Below the pieces are notes generated by a model. That model did not search any database and was not told the DNA's origin. It worked only from the letters and a program-made list of their open reading frames with translations. A program made the position numbers and the translations under genes. From a virus (lineage: Duplodnaviria > Heunggongvirae > Uroviricota > Caudoviricetes): DNA of 16,478 nucleotides. Positions 3,556-10,712 of this stretch are shown here, in pieces (the stretch's first letter is position 1; the number at the start of each line of letters is the position of its first letter). The stretch lies in the IMG/VR virus record IMGVR_UViG_2526164601_000013. One strand, 5' to 3'.

Positions 3556-3846
3556 TCATTGCCTTACTTCCATAAGCGCCCTATTAATAAACGCCGTCAT
3601 TGGATTTGCACATCCCCACCCCGTACCATCTGGATTTCTTTTAATTGGCTCCTTCTTCACTTTGCGTTTTGCATAAATAACCGTCTTCCACTTGCGCTCA
3701 ACAACACTCAAATGCCCTTGTTTCACCATATGCCTTGCTGCTTGAGCGATTCTGTTATTTGGTATTCCGGTGATCAGAGCTAATTCATGTGGGGAGAATT
3801 GTTCATGAGTTTTCAGATATTCCAGGATGATTTCTTTTCCAGTCAC
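3556..3846 (-). CDS. ren: Ren-like winged-helix DNA-binding protein
   Basis: Track ORF, 96 aa. Same size and position (just after the replication genes) as lambda ren, with an MTGKE start and an HTH-like segment. Family assignment is from memory. Confidence 0.5.
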   Translation of the reverse strand: MTGKEIILEYLKTHEQFSPHELALITGIPNNRIAQAARHMVKQGHLSVVERKWKTVIYAKRKVKKEPIKRNPDGTGWGCANPMTAFINRALMEVRQ

Positions 3847-4706
3847 AATCTGCTCCTGTAACTATCCCATGTAAACGCAAGGGTGCATCCGCCGCCATCA
3901 TTCATCCTGTCAATAACACGCTCACCAATGAATGCAGACAGTTCATCTTTGCTCTGGTTGCTAATCAGGATTGTTGGCTTCATACGCTCGTAGCGGGTGT
4001 TGATGATTTCGAACATGATCATCTTTTCCGCCTCGCTTCCAAACTGCACACCAACCTCATCGATAATTAGCAGGTCAGGTTTAGTGAACTGTCGGATCAC
4101 TTCATCCTCAGTGCGGGTGGAGTTTTTCGACCATGTTGATTTATATTCTCTGGCAATTTTCAGCGCCGTTGTGAAAATAGCTGAGCTTTGATGTTCCGTA
4201 ATTGCGTGCCGGGCGATAGCCAGTGCAAGATGATTCTTTCCAGTACCAGGCTTTCCACACATAACCAGCCCACCGCCTTTCTGTAACCTCTCAGGCCATT
4301 TGCTGGCGTATGCCTGACACACCCTGAGCACTCTCTTTGCATCGTCGTTGACTGGCTCGTAGTTCTGTAGTGTGCAACCCTTGAATCGTTCAGGAATATC
4401 AAGATTATTCAACAGAAACTCGACATTGCGCTTACGTGATTCCTCGTCGATTTTAATCTTCTCTGCCTGTAGCCGAATAAGATCATCTCTCATGCATTCC
4501 GGGCATTCGCTAGGTCTTGAAGCAAACTTAATTGGCCCAGTCGAGTAACGGTTACGCTGCTCAAACTCACCATGTTTTTCACAGATGCCAGTGCCAATTT
4601 CTACAGCTGTATGCTCGATAGCAATTGGCGGAGAACTCAATTCTGCAAGTTTTTTCTCCAGTTGGGAGATCTTTTCATCCAGCGTCATGTTCACTCCTGC
4701 GCCCAT
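3843..4706 (-). CDS. Replication protein, DnaC-type helicase loader (AAA+/IstB-like ATPase) with an N-terminal Cys-rich domain
   Basis: Track ORF, 287 aa. Walker A GKPGTGKNHLALAIA, Walker B LLIIDEVG, sensor region and ISNQS motif as in DnaC/IstB. Overlaps the O-like gene stop. Occupies the lambda P position. Confidence 0.85.
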   Translation of the reverse strand: MGAGVNMTLDEKISQLEKKLAELSSPPIAIEHTAVEIGTGICEKHGEFEQRNRYSTGPIKFASRPSECPECMRDDLIRLQAEKIKIDEESRKRNVEFLLNNLDIPERFKGCTLQNYEPVNDDAKRVLRVCQAYASKWPERLQKGGGLVMCGKPGTGKNHLALAIARHAITEHQSSAIFTTALKIAREYKSTWSKNSTRTEDEVIRQFTKPDLLIIDEVGVQFGSEAEKMIMFEIINTRYERMKPTILISNQSKDELSAFIGERVIDRMNDGGGCTLAFTWDSYRSRL

Positions 4707-5557
4707 GAAGGCATTTCAGTTTGTCCGTAATCTTTGGTGGCAAAGTTTTCCTGCATAGCTCGATGCTGCGGACTCGGTTGAGATTTCCCCTTTGGAGTCT
4801 TGGGCTCAAAAATCCCCTGCCAACCACTGGCGATGCTCTGGTTTATAATTTCTTCAGGTGTATATCCCTTCTCCAGACTTCTGCTTAGAACGTTGATAGC
4901 CTGAGTGACACTTTGCTTAGACTTGATCGACTTACCTATCTCCTTGCGATAGGTAACCCACGACAACCATGTTTCTGCCGATAACCAATCAGGCAACTCT
5001 GTTTCTAGCGGGTCGAACTTCTGAGAAACTTTTTTGGGGGATATAGGGGGTTTATTAATATTTTCTTTTGTCTTTAAAGAATGTCTTTTGTGTGTCTCTA
5101 ACTTCGAGACATTGAGTGTCTCTAACTTCGAGACATTGAGTGTCTCTAATTTGGAGACATTTTTTGTCTCTAACTTCGAGACAAAGTTGCTAACTTGGAG
5201 ACACTTGCTGAATTGCCACGCAGATACCTCCCTGTTTACACCGATTTGATTTCCATCCATAAACAGGCAATTCATTGAAATCAGTTCTTTTTTAGCCTTG
5301 TTAACATTCTGCCTTGACAGTCCTGTTAACTGAGCAATTTGCTCATCGGCTATTCGATCTGTTTTCTTATTGAAGCCATATGTTTTCCGGACGTAGGCCA
5401 GCATAACTTTCAACTGGCGAGCGGTTAAATCGGCACTTGCGATAGCTTCCAGCAGCTCGTTAGCGAATCTGGTGTAACCATCATCGATATCAGCCACTCT
5501 TCGCTCCTGTTCAACAGGTTCACTCTTCGGCAGGTAAAATACTTCAGCCAGGCTCAT
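4691..5557 (-). CDS. O: Replication initiator, lambda O-like, with iteron-encoded peptide repeats
   Basis: Track ORF 4691..5617, trimmed to Met MSLAEV, which has a GGAGG Shine-Dalgarno 7 nt upstream. N-terminal domain ERRVADIDDGYTRFANELLEA...KTYGFNKKTDRIADEQIAQLTGLS resembles lambda O. The SKLET(L/K)NV x4 repeats are encoded by the iterons. Confidence 0.85.
   Translation of the reverse strand: MSLAEVFYLPKSEPVEQERRVADIDDGYTRFANELLEAIASADLTARQLKVMLAYVRKTYGFNKKTDRIADEQIAQLTGLSRQNVNKAKKELISMNCLFMDGNQIGVNREVSAWQFSKCLQVSNFVSKLETKNVSKLETLNVSKLETLNVSKLETHKRHSLKTKENINKPPISPKKVSQKFDPLETELPDWLSAETWLSWVTYRKEIGKSIKSKQSVTQAINVLSRSLEKGYTPEEIINQSIASGWQGIFEPKTPKGKSQPSPQHRAMQENFATKDYGQTEMPSWAQE
5040..5202. 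repeat. Putative origin of replication: four 17-bp iterons with 24-bp periodicity plus a partial fifth, and an adjacent AT-rich region
   Basis: GTCTCTAACTTCGAGAC at 5094-5110, 5118-5134 and 5166-5182; variant GTCTCTAATTTGGAGAC at 5142-5158; partial copy to 5202. Each unit is itself an inverted repeat (GTCTC...GAGAC). AT-rich tract at about 5040-5093. All lie inside the O-like gene, as for ori-lambda. Confidence 0.7.
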
Positions 5558-6188
5558 TTCCAACCTCCGCATCAAAGCATTGGGCTTCAAGAGACTTAAC
5601 CATCGCCACACTGCCATCTGTATTAATAACTATCGATGAGTTATATTTGCTTATCAGTTGCTTCGCGTAATCAATTCCGGCGCGAATAAGGAAATTTTTC
5701 ACCGCAGGAAGATGACCAACTACACTACCCATACCTTGCTCTATAAGCTCATCATTAAGATCAAGCTCATTTTCATGGCGAAAAGAAATGAATGAGTCGT
5801 AAATTGCGTATTCTGCCGTCTCGCCATTTCTTTCAGGGCCAACCAGCGCCCTTATTTCATTTAGAGATTCAGAAAGCTCATTATCTTCAAGCTTGAAAAA
5901 CTCTCGATTATCACTAAGCCTCTCTTTTGCAAAGGCTTTATGAATGAGTTTTTCATCTGATGCGGGATTATTTGAATGAAAGGCTGCTATCACCTTAAAT
6001 GGCTTAGGAACGCCAGTAGAGGCTGAAATTTCTTTAGCCCTAACTTCTGGTGAATGCTTAGTCATCCCAATCTTATAAATTCCTGGCATGCACTCATTCG
6101 AAAGCACATAAACAAAGCCATTTGATTTAAAATCATCTGGCACCTTCATGCTCTTCAGAACCTGGAATTTGTCATTTTCGTATGTCAT
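5544..6188 (-). CDS. T5orf172 / GIY-YIG-like domain protein, putative nuclease (214 aa), inserted between cII and O
   Basis: Track ORF. AGGAG Shine-Dalgarno 5 nt upstream of the ATG. N-terminal segment FVYVLSNECMPGIYKIGMTKHSPEVRAKEI ... NREFF fits the GIY-YIG-like T5orf172 pattern as I recall it. The C-terminal ~110 aa are unassigned. Confidence 0.65.
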   Translation of the reverse strand: MTYENDKFQVLKSMKVPDDFKSNGFVYVLSNECMPGIYKIGMTKHSPEVRAKEISASTGVPKPFKVIAAFHSNNPASDEKLIHKAFAKERLSDNREFFKLEDNELSESLNEIRALVGPERNGETAEYAIYDSFISFRHENELDLNDELIEQGMGSVVGHLPAVKNFLIRAGIDYAKQLISKYNSSIVINTDGSVAMVKSLEAQCFDAEVGNEPG

Positions 6189-6222: not shown

Positions 6223-6501
6223 TCAGGCCTCGAAGAATTCGCCGTTCTTCGGGGCTTTTTCTTTTGTCAGCATTCTGGCTACTTTCTTAGCCAGTTCCGC
6301 CAACTCCTCGTCTTCAACACCCCATTCAAGAACAGCCAGAAGCATTCCCATTTTTGGGATGAAGCTGTCTTTCCATCGCGAAATTTGCGATTCATTAATC
6401 CCTAACGCGTCGGCAACCTTTCGCTGACCACGTACAGCAATTCGATTCAGGATGTTGCTTGTAATTGCATTCGCTTTCTTGCGAGTACTTGTAAGTTCCA
6501 T
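6223..6501 (-). CDS. cII: Transcriptional activator cII-like
   Basis: Track ORF 6223..6588, trimmed to Met MELTSTRKK, which has an AAGGA Shine-Dalgarno. QISRWK...IPKMGMLLAVLEWGV closely resembles lambda cII (SQISRWKRDWIPKFSMLLAVLEWGV). Lies downstream of cro and nutR. Confidence 0.8.
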   Translation of the reverse strand: MELTSTRKKANAITSNILNRIAVRGQRKVADALGINESQISRWKDSFIPKMGMLLAVLEWGVEDEELAELAKKVARMLTKEKAPKNGEFFEA

Positions 6502-6559
6502 ATGTAAGTATTTCCTTAACAAATAAGAAGTTATGCGCATCAACTTATGCGCGTTGTAT

Positions 6560-6602
6560 TCCCGCATTTCGGCGGGAATGAGGACCATGACTGTTAAAGA
6601 GC
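6560..6602 (-). promoter_or_regulatory. nutR site: boxA and boxB hairpin
   Basis: Read on the minus strand: boxA GCTCTTTAACA (plus 6592-6602) and boxB hairpin TCCCGC-CGAAAT-GCGGGA (plus 6560-6577). Both elements are identical to the nutL copies. Confidence 0.65.
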
Positions 6603-6610
6603 GGTGTTAC

Positions 6611-6835
6611 TTATGCTGCCTGATTCGGTTTTGGAAACAGGTGTGGCAAATCGGGGCGAATTTCGTAAGCCTTGATCTGCCCTCCAGTGGCGTTAACGAT
6701 GGCGGTAACTTTCTCTGGAGAGACCAACCCGCCTTTCAGCCATTTGTGTACTGCTGGCTGCGTTACACCACACTTGTCGGCAAGGCGCTTTTGGCTACCG
6801 ACAATTTTCAAGGCTCGTTGAATTACTAAATTCAT
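6611..6835 (-). CDS. cro: Cro-like repressor (HTH)
   Basis: Track ORF 6611..6856, trimmed to Met MNLVIQ, which has an AAGAGG Shine-Dalgarno 6 nt upstream. HTH segment GSQKRLADKCGVTQPAVHKW. Divergent from cI across the operator region. Confidence 0.7.
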   Translation of the reverse strand: MNLVIQRALKIVGSQKRLADKCGVTQPAVHKWLKGGLVSPEKVTAIVNATGGQIKAYEIRPDLPHLFPKPNQAA

Positions 6836-6859
6836 GAGCATACCTCTTGTGGTCATTAC

Positions 6860-6946
6860 TTATAACCAAAGATAACTCAAGTTATAAAAAATAGCAATAA
6901 CCTTTGTTATTTTACTTTGGATAACCGTAGTTATAGATTTGTGGGT
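6860..6946. promoter_or_regulatory. OR operator region with divergent pR/pRM: three 14-bp palindromic operators ATAAC-N4-GTTAT
   Basis: ATAACTCAAGTTAT at 6872-6885, ATAACCTTTGTTAT at 6897-6910, ATAACCGTAGTTAT at 6921-6934, spaced 24-25 bp centre to centre, between cro and cI. Confidence 0.6.
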
Positions 6947-7654
6947 ATGAAAACATTCGCAGAAAGACTAAATGCAGCCATGAGCTCAGCAGGGGTATCA
7001 CAATCACAGCTTGCTGACATGGTTGGAATATCTCAGCCAGCCATACAGAAGATGTCGTCCGGTAAAACAAACGGATCTCGCAAGATGGTTGAATTAGCCA
7101 ATGCTTTAAAAGTGCGTCCTGAATGGCTTAGTTCTGGTATTGGTGAAATGAGGGATGGTGCACATGAAGAACCATCCAATGTCCGTGATTCATCTTTAAA
7201 AGCTGTGGTATGGGAAGACATTAAAAGAAACGATGACGAGTTTGTTGCGTTGCCTCTTCTTAACGTTTCGCTTTCAGCTGGAAGCGGTAGCTGCGAGCTA
7301 GAGGAATCATCGGAGTTCTCTTTGGTTTTCAGAAAGCACTATCTGAAAAAGATGGGAGTATCTGAAAGATCAGCCAAGCTAGTTAGGGTTGTAGGGCAAA
7401 GCATGGAACCAACGCTTCACGATGGCGATGTTGTTGGTGTTAACACGCAAGATACCACAATCAGAGATGGTAAAACCTACGCTATTTGCCAGTCTGATTT
7501 GTTACGAGTAAAAACATTAATCGCCACCCCTACATCGGTGATAATCAGATCAATAAATCGCGAAGAGTACCCGGATGAAGTAATGGATAGAGATGAATTT
7601 CATGAAACCGTAAGGATTATTGGCAGAGTATTCTGGTCGTCTCATAGTTGGTAA
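6947..7654 (+). CDS. cI: Prophage repressor cI-like (N-terminal HTH, C-terminal LexA/S24 autopeptidase domain)
   Basis: Track ORF 6917..7654, trimmed to Met MKTFAERL because the upstream part overlaps operator 3. HTH segment GVSQSQLADMVGISQPAIQKM. S24 motifs GQSMEPTLHDGDVVGV (Ser) and LRVKTL (Lys). Confidence 0.85.
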   Translation: MKTFAERLNAAMSSAGVSQSQLADMVGISQPAIQKMSSGKTNGSRKMVELANALKVRPEWLSSGIGEMRDGAHEEPSNVRDSSLKAVVWEDIKRNDDEFVALPLLNVSLSAGSGSCELEESSEFSLVFRKHYLKKMGVSERSAKLVRVVGQSMEPTLHDGDVVGVNTQDTTIRDGKTYAICQSDLLRVKTLIATPTSVIIRSINREEYPDEVMDRDEFHETVRIIGRVFWSSHSW

Positions 7655-7694
7655 CCGATAATCAGAAGAAGACTTACGGAAGTGCGGAGGGATA

Positions 7695-7991
7695 ATGGAA
7701 TTTCTGATAGTTTTTGTTGTTGTTTTGGTCATCATTCTTTTTGTTTTGCTAAGCATTAGTAAAAAGCTATCTCAAATGATTGAACATAGCTCTAATCGTG
7801 CAAAAGAAGAAGAGCATATAATTGATATAAAAGAGATTCTCTCTGATATAAAAATCACATTAGATGAAATAAAATACACAACAGATCTAATTGAACAGTA
7901 TAAAATACCAACCCCAAACGAGAGAAAAGCAATAGATCAATATCGTATTGACTTAGAAATCGACGAAATGCTAAGCAAAAGAAAAGACTAA
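7695..7991 (+). CDS. Small membrane-anchored coiled-coil protein (98 aa) downstream of cI; candidate exclusion/abortive-infection moron
   Basis: Track ORF. GGAGGG Shine-Dalgarno upstream. N-terminal TM helix FLIVFVVVLVIILFVLLSI, then a charged helical region. Strongly AT-rich codon usage. Followed by an intrinsic terminator. Confidence 0.6.
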   Translation: MEFLIVFVVVLVIILFVLLSISKKLSQMIEHSSNRAKEEEHIIDIKEILSDIKITLDEIKYTTDLIEQYKIPTPNERKAIDQYRIDLEIDEMLSKRKD

Positions 7992-7996
7992 AAACA

Positions 7997-8023
7997 CCCG
8001 GCCTCAGCGCCGGGTTTTCTTTT
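7997..8023 (+). terminator. Rho-independent terminator ending the cI - orf98 transcription unit
   Basis: Stem CCCGGC / GCCGGG (7997-8002 / 8009-8014), loop CTCAGC, then TTTTCTTTTCC. Confidence 0.7.
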
Positions 8024-8145
8024 CCTGCCGTTCACCACCCAATCAACCATCCTCATCATAGACAAGCATCAAGCCAAAGGTAACACCTTCACCCCGCACG
8101 CAAGCCCTCAAACACCAATCAATCAGCAACATTTACAAAAATAAA

Positions 8146-8230
8146 ATACCTTTGTTATCCATCACTTATAACCTATTTACCATAAAATATAAATTAGGTT
8201 ATTGACCACACCTATAACCTAAGTTATCTT
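8146..8230 (+). promoter_or_regulatory. OL operators and candidate pL promoter
   Basis: ATAACCTAAGTTAT at 8214-8227 and ATAAATTAGGTTAT at 8189-8202, same family as the OR sites. Degenerate third site at about 8146-8181. Candidate -35 TTGACC at 8202-8207 and -10 TATCTT at 8225-8230 with a 17-bp spacer. Confidence 0.5.
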
Positions 8231-8276
8231 TAAGCCATCAGCAGGACGCTGGAAGCCAAACGGAACAGATTGGCAG

Positions 8277-8317
8277 GCTCTTTAACATTGATGGGATTGT
8301 CCCGCCGAAATGCGGGA
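8277..8317 (+). promoter_or_regulatory. nutL site: boxA and boxB hairpin
   Basis: boxA GCTCTTTAACA at 8277-8287 (close to the rrn boxA consensus as I recall it). boxB TCCCGC-CGAAAT-GCGGGA at 8300-8317. Both identical to the nutR copies. Confidence 0.65.
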
Positions 8318-8424
8318 ACCAAAGAGTAGTTGGCTTTGGGGTGACGTGAAGTGCAGCTGCACGACGGCAACCGGAAGATAAGCACCCGGCGCGTCACCGC
8401 CAAAGTCAATCATCGGAGGTCAAC

Positions 8425-8696
8425 ATGACAGTAGTCATTACATATCTGGCTGACGATAACGCCAGAAATCGCGCAGAGCACGCAGACAGGCTCAACGTGA
8501 ACAGGCAATGCAAGAACAGCGATTGGCACGAAAAATTGCGCTAAAGCTCTCTGGTTGCGTCAGAGCAGATAAAGCAGCATCACTCGGAAGCCTTCGCTGC
8601 AAGAAGGCAGATGAATGCAGTGGAAGTATTTGCCTGCCAAACGTAGCCATTTACGCGGCAGGCTACCGGAAATCAAAACAACTGACGGCGAGGTAA
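8425..8696 (+). pseudogene. N: N-like antiterminator, 5' portion, apparently frameshifted
   Basis: GGAGGT Shine-Dalgarno then ATG at 8425 opens a frame reading MTVVITYLADDNA... that stops after 39 codons. The arginine-rich motif (RQKSRRARRQAQREQA) and the N-like body lie in the next frame with no in-frame start before the track ORF's ATG at 8508. Confidence 0.5.
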
Positions 8697-8698
8697 TT

Positions 8699-9061
8699 AT
8701 GGGTCAGGAAGAAAAATATGAGCTTAAAAAGCTCATTGGAGAAGACGCCATAGAAGAAATTGCAGCATTAACAACAGCTATAAAGAATATTAGGTATGCG
8801 CTAAATACGCTTATCTCCTCATGCGACAAAAATAGCAGGGAATTTTTGATACTTGGCGCAGCTCTAGGAATAGTTGATGCGGCAACGCTTCACCTAATTA
8901 CTCATGACGATATTCTTATTGAGCCGTATGAAACATTACTGCTTGTCAGGCAAAAAATGGCTGATGCCGCAGCAAATGGAGACCTTCAACTTTACATCGA
9001 CTTAAGGAAAGTATTAAGGCGAATGGTCAAAACTGAAGGAGATATCCCCCTGACAAAGTAA
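8699..9061 (+). CDS. Hypothetical protein, 120 aa; gene A of an AT-rich two-gene cassette
   Basis: Track ORF 8615..9061, trimmed to Met MGQEEKYELKK, which has a GAGGT Shine-Dalgarno. Start lies immediately after the stop of the N 5' fragment. AT-rich. No family recognised. Confidence 0.55.
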   Translation: MGQEEKYELKKLIGEDAIEEIAALTTAIKNIRYALNTLISSCDKNSREFLILGAALGIVDAATLHLITHDDILIEPYETLLLVRQKMADAAANGDLQLYIDLRKVLRRMVKTEGDIPLTK

Positions 9062-9091: not shown

Positions 9092-9586
9092 TTAATAATT
9101 TGTCAGCGGCGGTACATATACAGGCTTAGGGTCTGGCGCTCTATACATCCGGTATTCATTCTTACAGCGAGGACATGAATGCACAAAGAACCCATTAGAT
9201 TTTATAGTAACCGTGCTTGGTTGAAGTATCGATATTTTATGTTCGCCGAAGCAATGTGCACAAAGGTTATGCTGCTGAATAGAAGGATCGGAATGACTCT
9301 TAGGTCGATACACGACAGAACCACCTTCAGTTGTATGAAGTTCATAATTCTCAGCTTGCACAACAAACATCTTGATTTTTCTATTTTCATCTCGAAGCTT
9401 CATTGCGATCTCCTTCTCGGCCTGATAAAGGCCAGAGAGCTCCGCATTAAGCATCTGTAAGTCAGTTATTCTTTGGTGTAGATCACCAATAGCTTTAGCG
9501 ATAACAGCATCGTCTCTGGTTTCTTTTATTGTCTTCAGCAGATCATAAGCCTGTTTCGCGGCAGTTATACCAGATAACACATCCAT
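9092..9586 (-). CDS. Hypothetical protein, 164 aa: N-terminal coiled coil plus C-terminal CxxC...CxxC zinc-ribbon-like domain; gene B of the cassette
   Basis: Track ORF, antisense to the pL operon and convergent with gene A. Cys motifs CAHC and CPRC about 20 residues apart. AT-rich. No family recognised. Confidence 0.55.
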   Translation of the reverse strand: MDVLSGITAAKQAYDLLKTIKETRDDAVIAKAIGDLHQRITDLQMLNAELSGLYQAEKEIAMKLRDENRKIKMFVVQAENYELHTTEGGSVVYRPKSHSDPSIQQHNLCAHCFGEHKISILQPSTVTIKSNGFFVHSCPRCKNEYRMYRAPDPKPVYVPPLTNY

Positions 9587-9667: not shown

Positions 9668-9778
9668 ATGTGGTTAAAAGACAGGCACAATCTTTACTAC
9701 CGCAAGCCACGCAGTGAAATGGGTGTGACTTGTGTTGGTCGCCAGAAAATGAAATTAGACAGCAAACCACTTATTTGA
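9668..9778 (+). pseudogene. N: N-like antiterminator, C-terminal remnant
   Basis: Translation ...NLYYRKPRSEMGVTCVGRQKMKLDSKPLI* closely matches my recollection of the lambda N C-terminus (RTWYSKPGERGITCSGRQKIKGKSIPLI*). The frame is open only from a stop near 9575, so it cannot encode a full N. Confidence 0.5.
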
Positions 9779-9786
9779 GGTGAGAT

Positions 9787-10257
9787 ATGACAAAATCATG
9801 GAGCGTACCTTTTCCTGAATCAGAAACTGAACATGATGGAATGCCTGTTTTCTGGAGATTCCAGGCGACAGTTGAAGAAGATGGAATCAAAATATTCGCA
9901 CTTCAATATATAGCTTTTCATCAGACAGAGCATTATGCATGGTTGGTTCCTGCGCATTGGATTGTTAATTTTAAACCAGCACCAAATCAGTGGTTACAGG
10001 AATGGAAACAAAAGAGAAATAGATATGCAATTAAGAAAGTAGCAAAAAATGCAGAAAGATCTTTTGCATTCCCAACGAAGAAACTTGCTATTGAAAGTTT
10101 ATTGCGCCGGAAGAAATACCATTTAATGAGAATAAAACAAGATTTGGCTGTTGTATCAACTCTTGTTGATGGGATGAAAAATATTGATACATCAACACCA
10201 GATATTGAATATAACTTTGGACACAACCAAGAAACAGAAAATTGGGTATTTTATTAG
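9787..10257 (+). CDS. Hypothetical protein, 156 aa
   Basis: Track ORF. GAGGTGAG Shine-Dalgarno. Starts 9 nt after the N-remnant stop. AT-rich. Confidence 0.55.
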   Translation: MTKSWSVPFPESETEHDGMPVFWRFQATVEEDGIKIFALQYIAFHQTEHYAWLVPAHWIVNFKPAPNQWLQEWKQKRNRYAIKKVAKNAERSFAFPTKKLAIESLLRRKKYHLMRIKQDLAVVSTLVDGMKNIDTSTPDIEYNFGHNQETENWVFY

Positions 10258-10361
10258 TACGAATAAGCACTGTGTATTCATTCCAACGAGTGAATACACG
10301 GAGCAATGTCGCTCGTAACTAAACAGGAGCCGACTTGTTCTGATTATTGGAAATCTTCTTT

Positions 10362-10388
10362 GCCCTCCAATGTGAGGGCGATTTTTTT
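10362..10388 (+). terminator. Rho-independent terminator (tL1-like) in the pL operon
   Basis: Stem GCCCTC / GAGGGC (10362-10367 / 10374-10379), loop CAATGT, then GATTTTTTT. Ends 12 nt before the ATG at 10401. Confidence 0.55.
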
Positions 10389-10400
10389 GACGGAGGAAAT

Positions 10401-10712
10401 ATGAAATTACGTGTCTGGCATATCCCGCAAGTACCTATGAAACCGTTCATTGCAGAAGTGGCAAGTGTTGAAGAGGGTGTTCGCCTGATGGGCGCACTGG
10501 CTGATTATGACGCCTTTCAGTATGACAACAACATCAAGCCTGATTACTGCAATGCTAACGGCCTTGAGATGTGGGATGAGAGCCTTACCGATGAAGATTT
10601 ATCAGAGGTGGGGCTTACTGATCGCTGGGTGGATTGGTACAGCGAATGCCAATGTTACGACGACCCACGTAAATATCTCGAAAGCCTGAAAGAAGAAACA
10701 TCAGCCGCCTAA
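10401..10712 (+). CDS. Hypothetical acidic protein, about 103 aa
   Basis: Track ORF 10347..10712 begins at a TTG inside the terminator. Start moved to ATG 10401 (MKLRVWHIPQV), which has a GGAGG Shine-Dalgarno. Confidence 0.5.
   Translation: MKLRVWHIPQVPMKPFIAEVASVEEGVRLMGALADYDAFQYDNNIKPDYCNANGLEMWDESLTDEDLSEVGLTDRWVDWYSECQCYDDPRKYLESLKEETSAA

Follow-up and report, generated by a model that had tools for sequence, protein, structure and literature searches.

What is the role of a small, very AT-rich gene that lies directly behind the cI repressor gene of a lambdoid prophage? This question is raised by the DNA of IMG/VR virus record IMGVR_UViG_2526164601_000013, a stretch of 16,478 nucleotides (nt) which, at its full length, is referred to here as the window. 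The gene in question, orf98, runs from ATG to TAA over 297 nt, encodes a protein of 98 amino acids (aa) and is preceded, 3 nt 5' of its ATG, by the ribosome-binding site GGAGGG. The open reading frame (ORF), its place directly behind cI on the same strand and its ribosome-binding site are all as they were described in an initial annotation made from the letters of the sequence (for the coordinates see Table 1). The 2-kb stretch around orf98 is 99.8% identical to the Stx1a (Shiga toxin 1a)-converting phage Stx1a_10051 (LC744178.1), and the orf98 region is 100% identical to prophages of Escherichia coli O26:H11 strain 11368 and of many further O26/O111 strains. The window itself is a lambdoid Stx1a prophage of E. 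coli, and orf98 is carried by the Stx1a prophages of the O26:H11 and O111 outbreak lineages.

The most informative result of our analysis is that the linkage to cI is family-wide. About 55 loci were read for family members at or above approximately 35% identity, which are associated with at least seven repressor types and whose hosts, where named, are E. coli, Citrobacter and Yersinia; in every one of these loci the gene starts 1-44 nt after cI. In all 13 loci that represent seven lineages, whose identity to orf98 is 38-78% (L003-L007, from Citrobacter freundii and two metagenome relatives; L009; L013 and L014, from Yersinia frederiksenii; L015; L017/L018; and L019/L020), cI adjoins the gene on its 5' side and on the same strand. 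The partner genes of these lineages encode a helix-turn-helix (HTH) domain together with Peptidase_S24 (for L017/L018, Peptidase_S24 alone is on the record), cro, cII and the replication genes are located on the far side of the repressor, and where the contig is long enough genes of the PL operon follow, with an N-type antiterminator domain recognised in most cases. A scan of IMG/VR added 35 further loci, each of them with a cI-type ORF ending 1-40 nt upstream, and the annotated E. coli chromosomal loci that were read are likewise cI-linked (4/4), one copy being interrupted by IS3. In the E. coli strain 3CM (L023, 1761-3191), an IS3-family element lies in orf98, and the leftover ORF of 75 aa keeps the hairpin of the protein (see below) and loses its membrane helix. 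The partner repressors are 22-59% identical between types, except for the Citrobacter-type pair L003/L005 (70%), and their DNA-binding domains are unrelated; the orf98 homologues beside them are clearly related. Within E. coli, the cro-cI-orf98 block is 98-100% identical while the replication and PL modules around this block vary. Lastly, in L003, L005 and L007 the C-terminal domain of the repressor appears to be closely similar to that of lambda cI; on this reading, the gene at these loci would be in the place of lambda rexA.

An association of this kind raises the possibility, which we consider unlikely but the foremost of the alternatives, that orf98 modulates the lysogenic switch or the stability of the prophage, with a membrane-held hairpin tuning repressor cleavage or induction. 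It might do so by sequestering a regulator, by acting upon the RecA-stimulated autocleavage in a Hex-like manner, or by aiding the transition from lysogeny to lysis, as has been proposed for RexA/RexB. The main argument in its favor is that the Enterobacterales-type branch of the family (hosts are named for some of its members only) is always found, through at least seven repressor types and down to approximately 35% identity, behind a LexA-like cleavable repressor of the S24 type. Additionally, in two lineages the start codon lies 1 nt after the cI stop codon, which suggests translational coupling and a fixed stoichiometry. Precedents are provided by Hex of phage 434, which is encoded in a PRM-cI-hex operon and lowers RecA-dependent induction (PMC3564112), and by a role in the switch that has been reported for RexAB (bioRxiv 10.1101/2021.04.19.439022). 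However, a specific contact with cI would be difficult to maintain across partner repressors that are as little as 22% identical, orf98 is missing from phages that have the same cI allele, and the distant members of the family (26-34% identity) are not found beside repressors. If orf98 nevertheless acted in this way, it would set the rate of spontaneous induction and of toxin release in a Stx1 prophage, and such tuning would bear on the release of Shiga toxin and phage by the carrier strains.

The base composition of orf98 is unlike that of the flanking phage genes. The gene had been called strikingly AT-rich, and its content of guanine plus cytosine (GC) is indeed 29.3% in comparison to 43.2% for cI and 45.2% for the window; only 0.07% of all 297-nt windows are as GC-poor, and the global GC minimum of the window, its lowest 297-nt stretch, falls on orf98. 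The same holds for the homologues, which have 29-40% GC inside loci of 45-53%. A short ORF of low-complexity composition that carries no annotation in the phage record could have arisen by chance within an AT-rich spacer, but the comparative data refute this explanation and we give it practically no credence. The ratio of nonsynonymous to synonymous substitution rates (dN/dS) is approximately 0.15 (0.145-0.163 for orf98 versus homologues at 77-78% identity), the architecture and a sequence motif are kept down to 26% identity, the ribosome-binding site is conserved, the protein matches the family phrog_18389, and orf98 is annotated as a coding sequence by RefSeq. Hence, orf98 is a real gene that is under purifying selection. 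When the two parts of the protein are considered separately, dN/dS is 0.07-0.10 for residues 43-98 and 0.26-0.28 for residues 1-42, which comprise the anchor and the linker; because of the lower ratio in residues 43-98, the hairpin that they are predicted to form is the selected part, and the helix behaves as an anchor would.

The borders of this AT-rich DNA can be seen in comparisons with related phages. The cro-cI region of phage SH2026Stx1, which has the same immunity, is 94.3% identical to the window up to position 7656, 2 nt beyond the cI stop codon, and the similarity of the window to the Citrobacter homologue is confined to 7685-8018 (ribosome-binding site, ORF and terminator), starting 10 nt before the ATG. 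orf98 is thus a promoterless cassette of approximately 340 bp, inserted between the stop codon of cI and the terminator of the immunity operon. In the spacer 7655-7694 neither a terminator nor a convincing promoter was found; the promoter scan gave just a weak 9/12 site at 7620-7648 inside the 3' end of cI, where a cryptic promoter is possible. As the gaps between cI and the gene are 1-44 nt and the cassette begins 10 nt before the ATG, there is no room for a promoter. An independent moron of the type described by Hendrix was also considered for orf98; its deviating composition agrees with this, but the cassette borders leave it with neither a promoter nor a terminator of its own, and this assignment was rejected.

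The terminator has a stem of 7 bp (7996-8015), six of them G-C, a loop of 6 nt and, after the stem, the sequence TTTTCTTTT. Its folding energy is -13.7 kcal/mol (z = -2.4 versus shuffled sequences), and due to a run of A 5' of the stem it also scores as a terminator for the - strand. The initial annotation had assigned to orf98 a clean intrinsic terminator of its own; the terminator is present, but its ownership by orf98 is contradicted by two phages that lack orf98 and yet carry this terminator, H-19B in a nearly identical form and SH2026Stx1 at 87% identity. In the Citrobacter-type loci its stem is kept and its loop is altered. It is better read as a backbone element of the immunity operon, a probable equivalent of lambda tImm, which would bar transcripts from the repressor promoters from the PL operon. 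In some of the related loci (L003, 5324-5530; L005/L007, 5324-5548; L009, 4733-5005), a conserved small gene on the - strand (68-90 aa, MGRDELLEDRAAFIA...) runs towards the orf98 homologue, and the two have the bidirectional terminator in common; this gene matches nothing in Pfam, and the window does not contain it.

The place of orf98 is taken by different genes in other phages. SH2026Stx1 (L025, 3563-4987) has 1.4 kb of cargo in this position, consisting of a DUF3024 gene, a 177-aa ORF and a 44-aa ORF, after which come the same terminator (window 7996-8026) and then OL/PL. H-19B, the classic Stx1 phage, which is of another immunity type, carries between cI and N (L002, 1151-2493) an unannotated HigB toxin gene (Pfam E value 4.5e-30), an HTH antitoxin (HigA) and a 93-aa ORF. 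The literature depicts the region between cI and N as a hotspot of mosaicism in which rexAB and BstA are located (PMC8585504). Since phages with the same or with another immunity hold differing cargo in this slot, it is a true cargo hotspot equivalent to that of rexAB. The equivalence with the rexA/rexB slot of lambda had been proposed at the outset, and both the lambda-order layout of the region and the DUF3024 and HigB/HigA cargo found elsewhere agree with it.

The location of the cassette also bears on the conditions under which orf98 would be expressed. Because PR is directed away from orf98 and PL lies beyond its 3' end, the gene should be transcribed from the repressor promoters only. 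Transcripts starting at PRM in the lysogen, or at PRE during establishment, would read through cI and orf98 and end at their common terminator before OL/PL. We regard co-transcription of orf98 with cI as highly probable; synthesis of the protein would then accompany that of the repressor at all times, with no contribution from the lytic promoters, and we infer that it is a lysogeny-specific protein produced in proportion to cI. The earlier expectation of co-expression with the repressor is upheld by the architecture of the locus (a gap of 1-44 nt, no intervening terminator and a promoterless cassette), and its support is of this architectural kind only.

The inner-membrane location of the orf98 protein is predicted from hydropathy, an AlphaFold model and the positive-inside rule. 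The mean Kyte-Doolittle hydropathy of residues 3-21 is 3.67, and the AlphaFold model (mean predicted local distance difference test score, pLDDT, of 82.5) contains helices at 2-38, 45-68 and 74-96, with the turn KIPTP between the last two. A second model, made from a deeper alignment, has the same C-terminal hairpin. Of the initial proposal of an N-terminal transmembrane helix followed by a charged coiled-coil, the first part agrees with the predicted helix at residues 3-21, but in place of the coiled-coil the AlphaFold model has an intramolecular hairpin of helices, in which the spacing of Ile and Leu is heptad-like. The family alignment contains a conserved block IKY(T/V)TD-IE-YKLP-x3-ER-x2-ID-x4-D-EI, while the membrane helix and the linker are variable; the most conserved residues cluster around the turn, and Y69, P72, D81 and E88 are invariant. 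In the 19 aligned members, no Lys or Arg precedes the membrane helix in any case (19/19), 1-4 of these residues are present in the 15 residues that follow it, and the soluble part has a net charge of -2 to -9. Based upon the positive-inside rule, this distribution of Lys and Arg makes it likely that the N-terminus is outside and the hairpin cytoplasmic, i.e. that the protein is a bitopic inner-membrane protein. A Sec signal peptide or a lipoprotein was rejected, as the N-terminus is Met-Glu without Lys/Arg, the hydrophobic run is 19 residues long and directly followed by Lys-Lys, and there is no Cys.

The membrane helix (FLIVFVVVLVIILFVLLSI) is purely aliphatic, rich in Val, Ile and Leu, and devoid of polar, charged or small pore-lining residues. 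Because of this composition, and because the helix belongs to the less conserved part of the protein, we favour a tethered binding module over a pore. The helix would serve as a plain anchor, the variable helical linker would hold the acidic hairpin in the cytoplasm beside the membrane, and the hairpin would engage a binding partner there, on the cytoplasmic side, without forming a pore. The same features bear upon the alternative that orf98 is a suicide (abortive-infection) effector or small membrane toxin, in which a triggered oligomerisation of the helix depolarises the membrane, either as a one-protein version of RexA/RexB or in the manner of a holin or type I toxin. The rexAB position of the gene would suit such a protein, as would a single membrane helix joined to a helical region able to drive oligomerisation, and a related soluble hairpin protein is encoded 19 nt upstream of a PIN gene, in a toxin-antitoxin-like arrangement. 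Nevertheless, we view this alternative as very improbable, since the aliphatic helix has no pore-lining residues and evolves faster than the hairpin (dN/dS 0.26-0.28 versus 0.07-0.10), orf98 is apparently tolerated under constitutive expression with cI, and the slot holds no antitoxin partner for it.

The orf98 protein has a full-length match to phrog_18389, a family of unassigned function (E value 6.4e-62, residues 1-98 on profile positions 1-98), and this profile matches all 19 aligned family members. In Pfam just sub-threshold matches driven by the membrane helix were found, with no Rex family at an E value of 1 or below, a search of the NCBIfam profiles gave nothing significant, searches of the PDB by sequence retrieved designed coiled coils only (a composition effect), and Foldseek gave zero matches versus both the PDB and BFVD. 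A homologue of RexA/RexB was rejected on the lack of a Pfam match to the Rex families at this threshold and of any relevant PADLOC match. By tblastn, three family members versus 50,697 phage records identified the source phage alone, a scan of species-representative genomes found no relative, and the literature search yielded no paper on a family of the orf98 type and no match for the RefSeq protein accession. On these searches, orf98 represents an uncharacterised family in a well-known functional slot.

The family is very rare. A word-indexed search of 5.8 billion proteins retrieved 11 clusters, from E. coli and Citrobacter, and a profile search of 1.84 billion representatives just 14 clusters at E values of 0.001 or below; members from Yersinia frederiksenii, Enterobacter asburiae, Cronobacter dublinensis, a Pelagicoccus species and metagenomes were added by later searches. 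The known members are 73-126 aa long, none is fused to another domain, and homologues down to approximately 26% identity have the same architecture. Among 5426 complete E. coli genomes orf98 is present in 102 (~2%), which come from cattle, pigs, chickens and humans and extend beyond the Shiga-toxin strains. This distribution can be brought to bear on another possibility, namely that orf98 is a lysogenic-conversion factor that binds a host protein located in the inner membrane or associated with it (such as a transporter, protease or sensor), alters host physiology and confers a benefit unrelated to phages. Small membrane proteins of bacteria often act by binding membrane proteins, and orf98 is small and bitopic, with a soluble tip that is conserved and no need of a partner gene; its varied hosts, not restricted to Shiga-toxin strains, are consistent with such a function, and AT-rich cargo behind the most active prophage promoter is the classic pattern of a conversion gene. 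Yet there is no pointer to a particular host target, and about 25 clusters among 5.8 billion proteins fit a general host-fitness gene poorly, so that a conversion factor seems to us improbable.

Our own, tentative preference, which is a guess, is that orf98 may be a membrane-tethered exclusion factor that is expressed in the lysogen and directed against other phages. The main arguments for this reading are the kinds of gene already recorded from the slot, the scarcity of the family and a distribution that is patchy and dispensable. The hairpin could then have as its partner a protein of the incoming phage, a component of DNA entry, or a host membrane protein that phages need. HK97 gp15, T4 Imm, P22 SieA and the lactococcal Sie2009 are small prophage-expressed inner-membrane modules consisting of a single gene, and Sie2009-type genes are located in the lysogeny module. 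orf98 is likewise small, single-gene and predicted to be in the inner membrane; however, it has no sequence relationship to any of these proteins, and its domain is predicted to be cytoplasmic rather than in the periplasm or the bilayer. Small inner-membrane superinfection-exclusion proteins are treated in a review (PMC11436027). A number of observations weigh against an exclusion function. The conserved position over a deep divergence and with many immunity types fits lysogeny housekeeping at least equally well, and orf98 is dispensable for carriage of the prophage, being split by IS3 in one E. coli strain and lacking from phages of the same immunity. The best-known blockers of DNA entry do not use a cytoplasm-facing domain. 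In PADLOC (PADLOC-DB v2) the sole match was to ZorB (E value 0.017, over the membrane helix), with no homology to a defence protein, and the remote-homology and structure searches as a whole, while they placed the protein in phrog_18389, were otherwise empty or non-specific (Pfam, NCBIfam, PADLOC, PDB and fold searches). In addition, the GC content of 29% might lead to silencing or lowering of orf98 expression by H-NS.

The likeness of orf98 to the known accessory genes of this region is one of position and expected expression. As in lambda rexA-rexB, the gene lies 3' of cI in the same orientation and ahead of both the operon terminator and OL/PL, the repressor promoters are expected to drive it and a membrane component is involved; some of the orf98-type loci, moreover, follow a cI whose C-terminal domain we take to be lambda-like. 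It differs from rexA-rexB in being one gene instead of two, in having one membrane helix compared with four in RexB, in a helix that is not channel-like and in lacking a RexA-like sensor. Nun of HK022, whose gene likewise follows the repressor gene in the cI-N interval, binds RNA and acts as a termination factor. With phi29 p16.7 orf98 shares the architecture only (an N-terminal anchor, a helical or coiled-coil region and a small cytoplasmic domain); a weak PHROG match to phrog_6682 (p16.7; E value 0.088) is below significance and probably composition-driven, and p16.7, unlike the product of a lysogeny-operon gene, acts early in the lytic cycle, when it organises replication at the membrane. 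Hex of phage 434 follows the repressor on the PRM mRNA, excludes heterologous phage and stabilises the lysogen; however, it has a predicted length of 158 aa and its description mentions no membrane association (PMC3564112), and the architectures of Hex and Nun are unlike that of orf98. BstA, from the Salmonella prophage BTP1 and its relatives, is similarly a single cargo gene right behind diverse repressors and has a Rho-independent terminator (PMC8585504). In lysogens BstA is produced at a high level, which for orf98 is expected from the layout only. BstA is described as localising where phage DNA is replicated, and it comes with a DNA-based element for self-immunity, whereas the orf98 protein is predicted to be membrane-anchored and has no similarity to it. 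orf98 thus appears to be akin to the rexAB/nun/hex/bstA class of accessory genes and a member of none of them.

The region between cI and N has already yielded rexAB, Hex and BstA (PMC8585504; PMC3564112), to which orf98 adds a compact single-gene family that is linked to repressors of many immunity types and has one short conserved hairpin. A small membrane protein behind cI will not surprise a specialist; it is the family-wide linkage, the hairpin and the Stx1 context that make this a well-defined target. If phage exclusion were its function, orf98 would be a new defence protein and among the smallest known.

The most distant members of the family (26-34% identity), from a Pelagicoccus species and three metagenome contigs, are located outside lambdoid prophages and not beside repressors. 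Their neighbours are small hypothetical genes, lipoproteins, an IS200 transposase, a recombinase fragment and similar accessory DNA; no common partner gene was found in these neighbourhoods, and guilt by association yielded no function. An exception is a relative of 73 aa that lacks the membrane helix, contains the motif MRIIEKYKLPSRKEQEALDE and is encoded 19 nt upstream of a PIN-domain gene of 193 aa (Pfam E value 3.7e-07) on two metagenome contigs (L011, 5001-5822; L012, 1786-2607). The two genes resemble a toxin-antitoxin pair, and this single case hints that the hairpin is a protein-binding, perhaps a nuclease-neutralising, module. A further proposal, to which we attach a low probability, is that LexA-like prophage repressors have in this family a dedicated and hitherto unnoticed partner, whose acidic, membrane-tethered hairpin, present in a fixed ratio with cI, captures a basic regulator or nuclease at the membrane and thereby sets the threshold of induction. 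Candidates for what is captured are an antirepressor, an N-type arginine-rich antiterminator of the incoming or resident phage, activated RecA and, because the soluble relative adjoins a PIN gene, a PIN-like toxin. Were this proposal correct, orf98 would directly control the release of Stx1 phage in O26/O111 strains.

The features of the immunity region are summarized in Table 1. Their order is that of a lambdoid immunity region, inverted, with the replication genes, cII and the cro-like gene on the - strand and cI on the + strand, and the length of cI is the same as that of the annotated XRE-family regulator in the O26:H11 11368 prophage (L001). The palindrome ATAAC-N4-GTTAT has five matches in the window versus 0.47 expected, all of them in two clusters; PRM and PR are placed, by inference, at OR. 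In lambda, cI-rexA-rexB fill the interval between OR and OL; as the operator clusters at OR and OL bracket both genes, cI and orf98 fill this interval in the same manner. Two nut-like elements, at 6559-6602 and 8277-8318, are inverted copies with approximately 82% identity, each consisting of a boxA-like GCTCTTTAA followed by a hairpin, and presumably correspond to nutR and nutL flanking the immunity region. To the 3' side of OL/PL are found a nut-like element, an N-type antiterminator gene, a gp17-like exclusion gene, kil and erf. A scan of 6400-8800 with Rfam gave zero matches.

Table 1. Features of the immunity region around orf98 (positions are those of the window)
Feature	Position	Strand	Description
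cro-like repressor gene	6611-6856	-	Divergent from cI; YdaS_toxin/P22_Cro/HTH_3 matches; copy in O26:H11 annotated as transcriptional regulator
OR	6872-6885, 6897-6910, 6921-6934		Three perfect ATAAC-N4-GTTAT palindromes between cro and cI
cI repressor gene	6947-7654	+	235 aa; HTH_3 (E value 8.5e-07), Peptidase_S24 (E value 1.6e-17)
cI-orf98 spacer	7655-7694	+	40 nt; Shine-Dalgarno GGAGGG at 7686-7691
orf98 coding sequence	7695-7991	+	Predicted membrane helix, residues 3-21 (nt 7701-7757)
orf98 linker and hairpin	7821-7982 (hairpin)		Variable linker, residues 22-42; predicted acidic helical hairpin, residues 43-96, with YK(I/L)P turn
Intrinsic terminator	7996-8023	+	tImm-like, bidirectional
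OL	8189-8202, 8214-8227	+	Two operators, overlapping PL-like promoter TTGACC-17-TATCTT (8202-8230)
Start of PL operon	8277-8696	+	nutL-like element (8277-8318), then N-antiterminator gene (8425-8696, frameshifted in the window)

Some further observations were made on the genes that surround this region. In comparison to the copy in O26:H11 11368, the N gene of the window has a deletion of 1 bp near 8472, and its frame stops after 39 codons; this could reflect either a sequencing error or an N-defective prophage. The N protein of O26:H11 11368 contains the arginine-rich motif NARNRRRARRQAQREQ and has a C-terminus similar to that of H-19B N. The replication module of the window (3559-6183) is wholly unlike that of the O26:H11 11368 prophage, which is otherwise near-identical, and the mosaic junction is located near cII. 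A 164-aa ORF (9092-9586) on the opposite strand lies inside the PL operon, and a second AT-rich island is present at 9711-10478 (minimum GC 0.316) with a 156-aa ORF at 9787-10257; both of these ORFs, which have no Pfam match, may be further cargo genes.

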